Assembly (NCBI GenBank): GCA_964514965.1
Contig: CAZETV010000002.1
Span: forward strand, 120,001 to 152,000
Direction of reading: 5' to 3'
Origin: Candidatus Hadarchaeota archaeon
Lineage (GTDB): Archaea; Hadarchaeota; Hadarchaeia; Hadarchaeales; Hadarchaeaceae
Length of the DNA stretch: 32,000 nucleotides
Below are positions 1,443 to 22,926 of this stretch, one piece after another; the first letter of the stretch is position 1; each line of letters begins with the position of its first letter. The notes under the pieces were generated by a model. That model worked only from the letters and a program-made list of their open reading frames with translations, had not been told where the DNA came from and did no database searches. The translations under genes were made by a program, and so were the position numbers.

Positions 1443-3278
1443 CTAAAATTTCGCATACTTACTCAAGCCGAGTTCCTTTAACTTCTCAGGGGTCGGCTTA
1501 CCTTTCTTCCACCCGCGCAGGGCATAGTACTCATCGAGCATCGCCCCCAGCTTGACAACATGACCTTTAGACGGACCCTCGGGCATCGATTCTTTGAGCA
1601 AACGTTTGGGTAGCGTGTCGTCCTTGCGGCCAAAGCCCTCGCGGTTGATGAAGAGCCGCTCAAGAGTATAGATACGATCACCGGCTTTCAACAGCTCATC
1701 GGGCGACCAGTTCCACCCTGTTATCGCGTTTAGCATCTCTACTATTTCAGGCATCCAAATGGCGAGGGTCGCAAATTTACAAAAGACGGCCGAATCACAG
1801 ATTGCGAATAGGTCTTGAAGAGTCTTCACCCACTGCGCCTTTCCCTCAGTGGCGAAGCGGTCAAGTCGTTTGGACACACCAAAAATTTCAGGACCTGTCA
1901 TGTAAGCTCGAAGGTGGCAGCTACCACTATTTGAGGTCGCGTATGCCAGCCCGTGTCCCTGAGAACCACGCGAATCATACGCAGACATTTCAAGTCCTTT
2001 AACGTGCATCGCCAGCTCGGAAGCGCCGTATTTCTCCGCGAGGCGCTTCGCCCCGAGCGCGATATCGTTGCCGAATCCTAGGCGATAGGCTGTCCGCCAA
2101 GTAAGCTCCACAATCGCTTGGGGATTGCCGAACTTCAGCACGAGCCCTCTCAGCTTCTCCTTCGATATCTTCCCGCGCTCACTCAGCTCCATTGCACAGC
2201 CCACGATGTTACCATAAGAAATGGGATCAATGCCCAGCTCATCACAGAGGTTGTTGGCCTTTGCTATGGCGTTTAAATCATTGACGTAGCACTGAGGCCC
2301 TAACGCCCAGAGCGCCTCATATTCTGGTCCCTCTCCCTCGACTTGATAAGGTACTTGAGTGATTCGGATTACGCGACCGCATGCAATCGGGCACTCCCAA
2401 CATGCTTTGCCTTTCACCGATATCGTCTTCGCAATGGTTTCACCGCTAATTTTTCCCGCGCTTGGAAAAACGCCCGTCTGAAAATTTCGAGTAGGGAGAA
2501 GCCCATACTCGTTGATAGTATTGACCGCAACAGCAGTTCCAAAGGTAGGCAGAGATTGCCCAGTAATTCGACTCTCTCGTAACATCTTCAACACTTTTTG
2601 AACGACTTCTTTGAATCTCTTCTCGTCCACGATGGGTATTTTTTTGTTTCCACGCACAGCGATTGCTTTGAGCTGTTTCGACCCCATCACAGCCCCAGCC
2701 GCGGCCCTGCCAGCCGTGCGATGCTTGTCGTTTATGATTGCCGCACACATCGCAAGGTTCTCCCCTGCGGGACCGATCGAGGCGATTTTGATATTCGAGT
2801 CCCCGAGTTCCTTACGGATACCGTCCTCGGTGCCACAAGTGCCTTTGCCCCAATACCGCCCAGCAGGCCTGATTTCCGCCTCTCCTTTGCGTATCCACAG
2901 GTAAACGGGCTCGGCCGCTTTGCCCTCGATAATTATTCCGTCGTAACCTGCAAACCTGAGTTCCGGACCGAAGGTACCGCCACAATTGCTCTCTCCAATA
3001 CCTCCAGTCTGTGGTGATTTGGTGATGATGTGGAATCTACCGCTCGTTGGGAATGCCGTGCCTGTGGCAGGACCCGTCATAAAGAGCAACTTGTTTTCAG
3101 GCCCCATAGGGTCGGTACCGGGTTTGAGTTCTTCGATGAGGATTTTCACGCCCAAGCCGCGACCTCCAACAAACAATTTGGCCTCGTCCTCGTCCACGAA
3201 CTCGTCGCGCATTGAACCAGATGAGAGATCAGAACGCAAAAGTTTCAGCTTCAAACCACCGCCTCGAGGAAAAATCAT
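1443..3278 (-). CDS. aor: Aldehyde:ferredoxin oxidoreductase family (tungstopterin enzyme)
   Basis: 611-aa ORF. N-terminus LLRSDLSSGS...FVGGRGLGVKILIEE and length are typical of AOR-family proteins. The internal cysteine-bearing region (CWECPIACGR) is consistent with the 4Fe-4S ligand segment. Confidence 0.9.
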   Translation of the reverse strand: MIFPRGGGLKLKLLRSDLSSGSMRDEFVDEDEAKLFVGGRGLGVKILIEELKPGTDPMGPENKLLFMTGPATGTAFPTSGRFHIITKSPQTGGIGESNCGGTFGPELRFAGYDGIIIEGKAAEPVYLWIRKGEAEIRPAGRYWGKGTCGTEDGIRKELGDSNIKIASIGPAGENLAMCAAIINDKHRTAGRAAAGAVMGSKQLKAIAVRGNKKIPIVDEKRFKEVVQKVLKMLRESRITGQSLPTFGTAVAVNTINEYGLLPTRNFQTGVFPSAGKISGETIAKTISVKGKACWECPIACGRVIRITQVPYQVEGEGPEYEALWALGPQCYVNDLNAIAKANNLCDELGIDPISYGNIVGCAMELSERGKISKEKLRGLVLKFGNPQAIVELTWRTAYRLGFGNDIALGAKRLAEKYGASELAMHVKGLEMSAYDSRGSQGHGLAYATSNSGSCHLRAYMTGPEIFGVSKRLDRFATEGKAQWVKTLQDLFAICDSAVFCKFATLAIWMPEIVEMLNAITGWNWSPDELLKAGDRIYTLERLFINREGFGRKDDTLPKRLLKESMPEGPSKGHVVKLGAMLDEYYALRGWKKGKPTPEKLKELGLSKYAKF

Positions 3279-3350
3279 CGGTCAATTTTAAGTAAGTTTG
3301 GGTAATGGTCTAAAAACTGATTAAAGCATGCACAAATACAATCATTTGGT

Positions 3351-3509
3351 AGCCCGGTGGGGTAGACCAGTGTTGACTGGGCCCAATGGTCAGGGGCTAA
3401 AACCCCCCGCAAAATCCTGCGGGCCTTTGGAGCCCGCGACGGCGGAAGGGAAAAATCCTGCCGAATTCGAACGTCGACATGCCGACCGAAATTCCGCCCC
3501 GGGCTACCA
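3351..3509 (+). tRNA. tRNA-Gln(UUG): tRNA-Gln (anticodon UUG) with A1:U72, encoded CCA and apparently four non-canonical insertions/introns
   Basis: Acceptor AGCCCGG/CCGGGCT. Anticodon arm CGGGC-CTTTGGA-GCCCG. T stem GGCGG/CCGCC. Ends ACCA. Gene is 159 nt, leaving about 80 nt of extra sequence in four blocks (D loop, D-loop/D-stem junction, 53/54, 59/60). Hand-folded; exact junctions ambiguous. Confidence 0.7.
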
Positions 3510-3603
3510 TTCACAACTTTAAATTAATCTCAGCGCTTTGCCCGTCTGCGGCTTAGGGGACCACATTTTTAAAGTTAGTGCCGAAAGTTTTTATGTTGAT
3601 TGA

Positions 3604-4068: not shown

Positions 4069-4196
4069 AGCCCCGTGGGGTAGACCAACAATGTTGGGCC
4101 CAATGGTCAATCCTGGCGGACATCGTTAAGACCGCAATCTGGATCCGTCGACCCCGGTTCGAAACGGCTCAACCGACGAAGTTCCGGGCGGGGCTA
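4069..4196 (+). tRNA. tRNA-Gln(CUG): tRNA-Gln (anticodon CUG) with A1:U72 and three insertions/introns (D loop, 32/33, 59/60); CCA not encoded
   Basis: Acceptor AGCCCCG/CGGGGCT. Anticodon stem GCGGA/TCCGT, with loop C[ATCGTTAAGACCGCAA]TCTGGA. T arm CCCGG-TTCGAA[ACGGCTCAACCGACGAAGT]T-CCGGG. D region is collinear with the Gln(UUG) gene. Hand-folded. Confidence 0.75.
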
Positions 4197-6789: not shown

Positions 6790-6885
6790 TGGGGCCAGGG
6801 TCGGGATTTGAACCCGACACACGGGATATCTGCGAGAAAAACTCCCCACAGTCCCGGATGTTAACCAAACTACACTACCCTGGCC
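6790..6885 (-). tRNA. tRNA-His(GUG): tRNA-His (GUG) with encoded G-1 and CCA and a canonical ~18-nt intron after position 37
   Basis: Reverse complement reads G-GCCAGGG-TA-GTGT..ACAT-C-CGGGA-CTGTGG[GGAGTTTTTCTCGCAGAT]A-TCCCG-TGTG-TCGGG-TTCAAAT-CCCGA-CCCTGGC-C-CCA. Confidence 0.9.
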
Positions 6886-22798: not shown

Positions 22799-22827
22799 GC
22801 GCCAGCCATTTTTGAGGTATGGTGCGG
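22799..22827. repeat. 29-nt direct repeat, copy overlapping the genuine tRNA-Leu 3' end
   Basis: See 21800-21828. Confidence 0.8.
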
Positions 22828-22926
22828 GGGAAGGGATTTGAACCCTCGAACTCCTAAGAGACCAGCCCCTCAAGCTGGCACCTTTAGTCGGTCGTTAGAC
22901 CTTTGACCTGACTCGGCCACCCCCGC
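22820..22926 (-). tRNA. tRNA-Leu(GAG): tRNA-Leu (GAG), class II, encoded CCA, with a ~19-nt insertion/intron at the D-stem 3' side
   Basis: Reverse complement: GCGGGGG-TG-GCC-GAGTCAGGTCAAA-GG[TCTAACGACCGACTAAAGG]T-G-CCAGC-TTGAGGG-GCTGG-TCTCTTAGGAGTTC-GAGGG-TTCAAAT-CCCTT-CCCCCGC-A-CCA. AAAGGT repeats at both insertion borders. Confidence 0.85.

Follow-up and report, generated by a model that had tools for sequence, protein, structure and literature searches.

A tRNA-Gln(UUG) gene with four putative BHB introns in an uncultured Hadarchaeote

We describe a tRNA-Gln(UUG) gene of an uncultured Hadesarchaeon (Hadarchaeote) which, we conclude with high confidence from its sequence, is functional, is apparently the only gene for this tRNA in its genome, and contains four BHB introns that would be cut out by EndA, with the exons joined by RtcB into a 76-nt tRNA. 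Under the mechanism that we propose, transcription of the gene would yield a precursor RNA about 160 nt long, where each intron would pair with adjacent exon bases to form a BHB motif; EndA would then cleave in both bulges of the motif and RtcB would ligate the exons, leaving an ordinary tRNA of 76 nt that has the A1-U72 pair and ends in CCA. We infer that splicing of all four introns takes place.

The gene is located on the plus strand at positions 3351-3509 of the window, i.e., the whole stretch of 32,000 nt that was analysed, and its 159 nt comprise five exons (15, 5, 33, 6 and 17 nt) and four introns (21, 21, 20 and 21 nt), with the CCA encoded at 3507-3509. With the introns in parentheses, it reads AGCCCGGTGGGGTAG ( ACCAGTGTTGACTGGGCCCAA ) TGGTC ( AGGGGCTAAAACCCCCCGCAA ) AATCCTGCGGGCCTTTGGAGCCCGCGACGGCGG ( AAGGGAAAAATCCTGCCGAA ) TTCGAA ( CGTCGACATGCCGACCGAAAT ) TCCGCCCCGGGCTACCA. 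The introns interrupt the D loop twice (at 15/16 and about 20a/21) and the T arm twice (at 53/54 and 59/60), account for 83 of the 159 bases, and isolate two micro-exons of 5 and 6 nt. The features of the locus are:

3320..3327, plus strand: A/T-rich box ATTAAAGC, 24-31 nt upstream of tRNA position 1, read from the sequence
3351..3365, plus strand: exon 1, AGCCCGGTGGGGTAG, positions 1-15 (acceptor 5' strand, U8, D-stem 5' strand, A14, G15), invariant in eight four-intron orthologs
3366..3386, plus strand: intron 1, ACCAGTGTTGACTGGGCCCAA, 21 nt, at 15/16 in the D loop, class HBh'
3387..3391, plus strand: exon 2, the 5-nt micro-exon TGGTC (D-loop U16, G18, G19, U20, C20a)
3392..3412, plus strand: intron 2, AGGGGCTAAAACCCCCCGCAA, 21 nt, 3' side of the D loop (about 20a/21)
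3413..3445, plus strand: exon 3, AATCCTGCGGGCCTTTGGAGCCCGCGACGGCGG, 33 nt (D-loop end, D-stem 3' strand, anticodon arm, variable loop CGAC, T-stem 5' strand GGCGG), with a single variable column among the eight four-intron orthologs
3446..3465, plus strand: intron 3, AAGGGAAAAATCCTGCCGAA, 20 nt, at 53/54, full hBHBh' motif
3466..3471, plus strand: exon 4, the 6-nt micro-exon TTCGAA (T loop 54-59), identical in all eight four-intron orthologs
3472..3492, plus strand: intron 4, CGTCGACATGCCGACCGAAAT, 21 nt, at 59/60
3493..3509, plus strand: exon 5, TCCGCCCCGGGCTACCA (U60, T-stem 3' strand CCGCC, acceptor 3' strand CCGGGCT, discriminator A, CCA), identical in all eight four-intron orthologs

As a first-pass annotation of this DNA had described, the acceptor stem (AGCCCGG/CCGGGCT, discriminator A), the anticodon arm (CGGGC-CTTTGGA-GCCCG, with the anticodon TTG at 3427-3429) and the T stem (GGCGG/CCGCC) are intact in a 159-nt gene that holds four extra blocks. 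When these blocks are removed in silico, ARAGORN calls a 76-nt tRNA-Gln(ttg), and the canonical cloverleaf is restored with a 7-bp acceptor stem, the A1-U72 pair, the D loop AGTGGTCA, the T loop TTCGAAT and the encoded CCA. When the window was searched with the gene unspliced, neither ARAGORN nor Rfam (at the gathering threshold and at E <= 10) returned anything at this locus. The third and fourth blocks had been delimited exactly as we find them (3446-3465 at 53/54 and 3472-3492 at 59/60). The first had been correctly assigned to the D loop and given a length of ~16-19 nt that is too short, the intron being 21 nt (3366-3386) and including GCCCAA past the hairpin; for the second, the length of about 21 nt holds and the best placement is one base leftward (3392-3412). 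The upstream box is probably an archaeal TATA-like promoter element, judging from its sequence, and a similar box (gATTAAAGCa or aATTAAACCa) is present at equal distance in the four-intron orthologs. Two mechanically called ORFs of 79 and 64 aa overlap the gene, at window 3275-3514 (minus strand) and 3328-3522 (plus strand); both are probably spurious, and gene finders could miscall them as proteins.

The intron boundaries given above were set by homology to an intronless ortholog of the same genus, independently of any BHB search. We searched 40 related genomes and recovered the same locus in many species, with full-length identities of 92-95% for the gene in seven further members of the genus. 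In G001, a member of this genus, the gene is intronless (AGCCCCGTGGGGTAGTGGTCAATCCTTCGGGCCTTTGGAGCCCGAGACCCCGGTTCGAATCCGGGCGGGGCTA, 73 nt), shows no indels relative to the predicted spliced product, to which it is 88-89% identical, and has the counterpart of exon 2 joined to its neighbours, reading TAGTGGTCAATCC. All four introns are present in eight species of the genus (G000, which is the host genome studied here, G002, G003, G005, G006, G007, G008 and G012), and the remaining intron-bearing combinations were found as follows:

Intron 1 only: G017, G022
Intron 2 only: G024
Introns 1 and 2: G004, G019, G037, G028
Introns 1, 2 and 4: G015
Introns 1, 3 and 4: G023

Since the introns occur singly or in subsets among relatives, the blocks are four independent, separable units, and the comparison with orthologs that the first-pass annotation had proposed as a check thus gives zero to four introns at one syntenic locus. 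The counterpart of intron 3 in genus g11 (G023) is 17 nt long, and intron 4 is also found in G015, in G023 and in the tRNA-Gln(CUG) paralog. Intron 2 is present in three families of the order and is hence old, contrary to the suggestion that block 2 was a recent gain. Gene order is also kept, in the sequence AFOR (aldehyde:ferredoxin oxidoreductase), tRNA-Gln(UUG), ORF133 (133 aa), tRNA-Gln(CUG) and M50 peptidase, and the intronless G001 gene still has its ORF133 neighbour. An assembly artefact is ruled out, as the structure is common to eight independent MAGs.

Within one GTDB genus, the loci (L003-L022, L094-L123) fall into two Gln(UUG) sequence types. Type A has the acceptor AGCCCGG, the T stem GGCGG and four introns, and its mature form is one base off that of genus g11, which has introns 1, 3 and 4; type B has the acceptor AGCCCCG and either no introns or two. 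The sequences suggest a deep split, gene conversion or tRNA gene transfer. A free-choice run of our BHB remover on the orthologs was discarded, having given wrong mature forms for several of them.

Using the published BHB definition, in which the bulges are 3 nt each and the cut falls after the second bulge base, a motif can be modelled at all four homology-defined junctions, as expected from the earlier proposal of four separate BHB-type introns at non-canonical positions. The modelled motifs are as follows, a hyphen marking the cut within each bulge:

Intron 1: H GGGT (exon)/GCCC (intron), with 4/4 central pairs; bulges AG-A and AA-T; h' CCAGT/ACTGG (5 bp); no h
Intron 2: H GTGG/CCGC; bulges TC-A and AA-A; h' GGGG/CCCC; no h
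Intron 3: H CGGC (exon, 48-51)/GCCG (intron); bulges GG-A and AA-T; h' AGGG/TCCT; h CGA/TCG (3 bp)
Intron 4: H TTCG (exon)/CGAA (intron); bulges AA-C and AT-T; h' GTCG/CGAC; h the T stem, after removal of intron 3

The helix h' is 4-5 bp in all four introns, which exceeds the 2 bp asked of one or other flanking helix (h or h'). Our own BHB search returned 32 strict candidates in the 156-nt precursor, so that BHB formation alone is weak evidence, and it is for this reason that boundaries were placed by homology instead. Of arbitrary boundaries in these sequences, 0.11% carry a strict BHB, defined by 4/4 central pairs and an h' of 3 bp or longer, and all four of the homology-defined ones carry it; with four independent boundaries all qualifying, chance does not account for the result. 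The same holds beyond the host: across 17 intron-bearing orthologs we count 37 introns defined by homology, every one with 3-nt bulges and an h' of 3-9 bp, and 36 of the 37 have a 4/4 central helix (the exception, intron 2 of G028, has 3/4), where intron 2 of the eight four-intron genes scored 4/4 only with intron 1 removed.

Examination of these motifs in the primary transcript and after removal of neighbouring introns points to a partly ordered pathway. In the primary transcript, the central helix has 4/4 pairs in introns 1, 3 and 4; that of intron 2 is ATGG/CCGC, with 3/4 pairs, as long as intron 1 is present, and becomes GTGG/CCGC, with 4/4 pairs, once intron 1 is out. Similarly, the outer helix of intron 4 has 0 bp in the primary transcript and 5 bp with intron 3 removed, as only then are the T-stem strands adjacent. 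In its MFE fold, the precursor already forms the acceptor stem, the whole intron 1 BHB and the H and h' helices of intron 4, with the T stem closed and intron 3 looped out. We also computed the probability of each BHB conformer, P(BHB), from constrained partition functions. For intron 1 this is about 0.54 in the primary transcript and independent of neighbour removal; for intron 2 it rises from 1e-4 to 0.5-0.86 after removal of intron 1; for intron 4 it rises from 0.03 to 0.76 after removal of intron 3; and for intron 3 it is about 0.003 in the primary transcript (37 C) and lies within 0.002-0.04, because this fold competes with the T stem throughout. These models predict that intron 1 leaves before intron 2, through the 4-bp central helix, and intron 3 before intron 4, through the outer helix. 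Intron 2 of G004, G015, G019 and G037 differs in this respect: there the intron 2 strand of the central helix is CCAT, which pairs 4/4 with or without intron 1, whereas its counterpart in the four-intron clade, CCGC or CCAC, needs intron 1 to be out before all four pairs can form, so that the dependency of intron 2 on intron 1 seems to be a derived feature of that clade.

The host genome (1.28 Mb, 94.5% complete) encodes both enzymes that such a pathway would use. The EndA gene (G000 C1:874866-875426, plus strand) encodes 186 aa and matches PF01974 at E = 1.4e-33, and the RtcB ligase gene lies outside the window (G000 C2:162963-164270, minus strand) and matches PF01139 at E = 1.3e-179. The closest EndA loci all come from Hadesarchaea/Hadarchaeota MAGs, with up to 93% identity (Hadesarchaea archaeon DG-33), which identifies the host as a Hadarchaeote rather than a member of the Thermoproteales or of TACK. 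Apart from two 1-residue indels, the protein runs collinear to the M. jannaschii alpha4 enzyme (1A79, E = 5.5e-35), aligns with it through the YERG...HS...HSVxKK motifs and conserves the catalytic residues (Tyr/His/Lys). It contains neither the 9-residue crenarchaeal loop of the A. pernix alpha subunit (3P1Z_B) nor the five extra residues that precede the catalytic His in ARMAN-2, and the alignment shows no insertion relative to M. jannaschii EndA that could be identified as the 'L3' loop. The enzyme is of the single-gene alpha4 type and would assemble as an alpha4 homotetramer. The first-pass annotation had placed the gene in a Thermoproteales-like context, and this does not hold for a Hadarchaeote with a single alpha4-type EndA and no crenarchaeal loop.

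Two observations speak against splicing by EndA. Introns 1 and 2 have no outer helix, i.e., they are of the relaxed HBh' class, and alpha4-type EndAs are described by Kaneta et al. 2018 (PMC5829648) as cutting strict BHB motifs only; in addition, the thermodynamic model favours the T stem over the BHB of intron 3. The first of these would fit a situation in which the introns are real and splicing requires an extra factor beyond a single alpha4 EndA, such as an undetected second subunit or another nuclease, and the roughly 5% of the genome that is missing could hold a second EndA subunit, or indeed a second Gln(UUG) gene. We consider the need for such a factor improbable. A profile search of this 94.5% complete genome with filters off found no second EndA-like ORF (next best E = 0.88), most Hadarchaeota MAGs likewise returned one EndA locus, and Kaneta et al. 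class the EndA of Hadesarchaea as alpha4 and tie it to heavy tRNA gene disruption. Some Hadarchaeota MAGs (e.g., JZ-2_201705_bins_153 and SRP323688_co1_140) have two EndA loci, which could be paralogs or bin redundancy.

Substitutions are concentrated in the introns. When the eight four-intron orthologs are compared, a single exon column out of 73 is variable and, of the 83 intron columns, 23 are (Fisher p = 2e-6), in species whose flanking AFOR proteins are 82-87% identical (six of seven relatives measured). In the 5' half, aligned from 15 distinct sequences, pairing holds in 97.6% of cells for the BHB helices of introns 1 and 2 together with the anticodon stem, with both-side changes at eight pairs, in 23 cells; 0 of 500 shuffles match any of these measures and slid controls are 31-53% paired. 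Compensatory changes occur in both H and h' of intron 1 and likewise in the BHB helices of intron 2. For example, a D-stem change from GGGT to GTGT is accompanied by a change of the intron 1 strand from GCCC to GCAC or GCAT, and the intron 2 pair U16:A is replaced by C16:G, with covariation at alignment pair 47:77 (UA, CG, UG). The two T-arm introns show one-sided, wobble-preserving changes (CGGC to CGGT, GCCG to GCTG, CGAA to CGGA) and loop changes, in an alignment of seven distinct sequences of introns 3 and 4 with too little variation for a covariation test. A whole-gene MAFFT alignment was left out of these counts, the T arm being misaligned in orthologs lacking introns 3 and 4.

It is very improbable, in our judgement, that the locus is a decaying pseudogene in which the four blocks are inactivating insertions. 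Standard finders do not recognise it, four insertions are unusual for one small gene, and the intron 3 BHB is sparsely populated in the thermodynamic model, all of which such decay would explain. It would not explain exons that are near-invariant across eight species while the introns vary, which also tells against the signs of decay noted previously, nor BHB motifs kept at all junctions with compensatory changes in the helices of introns 1 and 2, nor a conserved promoter-like box. Furthermore, no second intact Gln(UUG) gene, which the first-pass annotation had named as a sign of a pseudogene, was found in the 94.5% complete genome by BLAST of the precursor or mature sequence or by a BHB-aware census. 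The CUG isoacceptor cannot read CAA, and the genome uses this codon heavily (2973 CAA vs 2741 CAG in 487 long ORFs, i.e., about equally frequently), which again argues against loss of the sole Gln(UUG) gene found. Least credible of all is that only two or three introns exist, with blocks 1 and 2, or 3 and 4, excised as one long intron that includes a micro-exon: the micro-exons are indeed just 5 and 6 nt and the BHB search does give longer candidates spanning two blocks, but excising 3366-3412 would lose TGGTC, including the universal G18 and G19, excising 3446-3492 would lose TTCGAA, which is the T loop, both micro-exons are in place in the intronless ortholog, and relatives have intron 1 without intron 2 (G017, G023), intron 2 without intron 1 (G024) and intron 4 without intron 3 (G015).

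The four-intron gene stands in a genome with many disrupted tRNA genes. Our census, which is partial, gave 39 loci with 36 removed blocks, counts that include one false locus (rejected by ARAGORN) and some under-spliced genes; Gln(UUG) alone has four blocks, Gln(CUG) has three and several genes have two. The census missed tRNA-Tyr, initiator Met and others, and a relaxed second pass added only Glu(UUC). The BHB-guided, depth-first remover over-split long introns, taking five steps for the two actual blocks of tRNA-Trp. Of the five tRNA genes in the window, ARAGORN detected one and Rfam two, so that Hadarchaeota MAGs will seem to lack essential tRNAs.

The other tRNA genes that we inspected are interrupted in a similar manner. 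The tRNA-Gln(CUG) paralog (window 4069-4196, plus strand) has no encoded CCA and three introns, of 20 nt at 15/16, 16 nt at 32/33 (H = GCGG/CCGC) and 19 nt at 59/60; the first and last are homologous to introns 1 and 4 of the UUG gene, with the last being close to UUG intron 4 of G015, and blocks 2 and 3 are absent, as had been stated. The tRNA-His(GUG) gene (window 6793-6884, minus strand), with an 18-nt intron by the anticodon, was missed by Rfam at the gathering threshold and found by ARAGORN with introns allowed and by the census. The tRNA-Leu(GAG) gene (window 22823-22926, minus strand) has a 19-nt D-loop intron (gene positions about 23-41), and a near-identical intron is present in tRNA-Leu(CAG) at G000 C1:952350-952453. 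Outside the window, about 1.9 kb upstream of the EndA gene, tRNA-Trp(CCA) (G000 C1:872810-872972, plus strand) has a 58-nt intron at 37/38, with UGAUGA and CUGA motifs that are box C/D-like (compare other euryarchaeal tRNA-Trp introns), and a 31-nt intron at 53/54. A further locus outside the window, of 191 nt (G000 C1:66803-66993, plus strand), has initiator-type acceptor ends (AGCGGGG...CCCCGCTA) and an isolated CTCATAA element, and a strict-BHB search of it gave no exon solution.

The kind of feature described here is already known, and the lineage had already been flagged as rich in disrupted tRNA genes. Archaeal tRNA genes are reported to have up to three introns in the tRNAscan-SE 2.0 paper of 2021 (PMC8450103), which covers the multi-intron genes of the Thermoproteales (Pyrobaculum, Thermofilum, Caldivirga; Sugahara et al. 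2007/2008). These resemble the present gene in having several short, non-canonical BHB introns in the D and T arms of one gene, and in having neighbouring introns where one leaves before the next BHB can form, so order dependence of this sort is itself known (PMC8450103); they differ in a published maximum of three per gene, compared with four in this Gln(UUG) gene. Their hosts belong to the Thermoproteota and have a heterotetrameric (alpha-beta)2 EndA with the crenarchaeal loop, whereas here a Hadarchaeote has one alpha4-type gene and no loop. The earlier view that four introns would be at or beyond the known range is correct insofar as four exceeds the published 'up to three' (PMC8450103), and not as regards 'beyond', since a preprint of October 2026 gives up to five intervening sequences in one Asgard tRNA gene. 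In Asgard archaea most tRNA genes are interrupted, with over half of all tRNA genes carrying several introns; the introns lie at BHB-competent sites, and standard annotators miss many of those in the D arm. Valentin-Alvarado et al. 2024 report multiple introns in more than half of the tRNA genes of Atabeyarchaeia and Freyarchaeia. The Asgard archaea are a different phylum with much larger genomes than this host, Hadarchaeota are absent from those censuses, and the Asgard EndAs carry an L1 loop according to Kaneta et al. (PMC5829648). A close known case is Hadesarchaea YNP_N21, of the same lineage, which in the same paper (PMC5829648) has a single alpha4 EndA and many disrupted tRNA genes; the paper credits the breadth of the enzyme to an 'L3' loop, and its text, as far as consulted, gives no four-intron gene. 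A eukaryotic three-intron tRNA gene, with introns in the D arm, anticodon loop and T loop, offers a further parallel, in that its order of removal correlates with BHB stability; that order was established experimentally by RT-PCR, whereas ours is only predicted.

The gene is therefore an extreme case of a known archaeal habit and not unprecedented; what is new is the gene itself, the presence of four introns in a Hadarchaeote Gln tRNA, the series from zero to four introns at a single locus, and the splicing interlocks that we predict. Outside the Asgard archaea, it takes the documented count of introns in one archaeal tRNA gene up to four, and a syntenic locus with 0, 1, 2, 3 or 4 introns is a ready series for the study of intron gain and loss. 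The locus also provides defined substrates on which alpha4 EndA can be studied with relaxed, position-independent and order-dependent BHB motifs. We offer tentatively, as a possibility that we hold with some doubt, that a homotetrameric EndA of the alpha4 type, lacking any insertion over the strict enzyme of M. jannaschii, excises four non-canonical introns from one tRNA, two of them relaxed (HBh') and devoid of an outer helix, by an interlocked pathway (intron 1 before intron 2, intron 3 before intron 4) whose first dependency was made obligatory by a T-to-C change in intron 2 of the four-intron clade. If this is true, a broad EndA substrate range and extreme fragmentation of tRNA genes would require neither the known specificity loops nor a heteromeric architecture.
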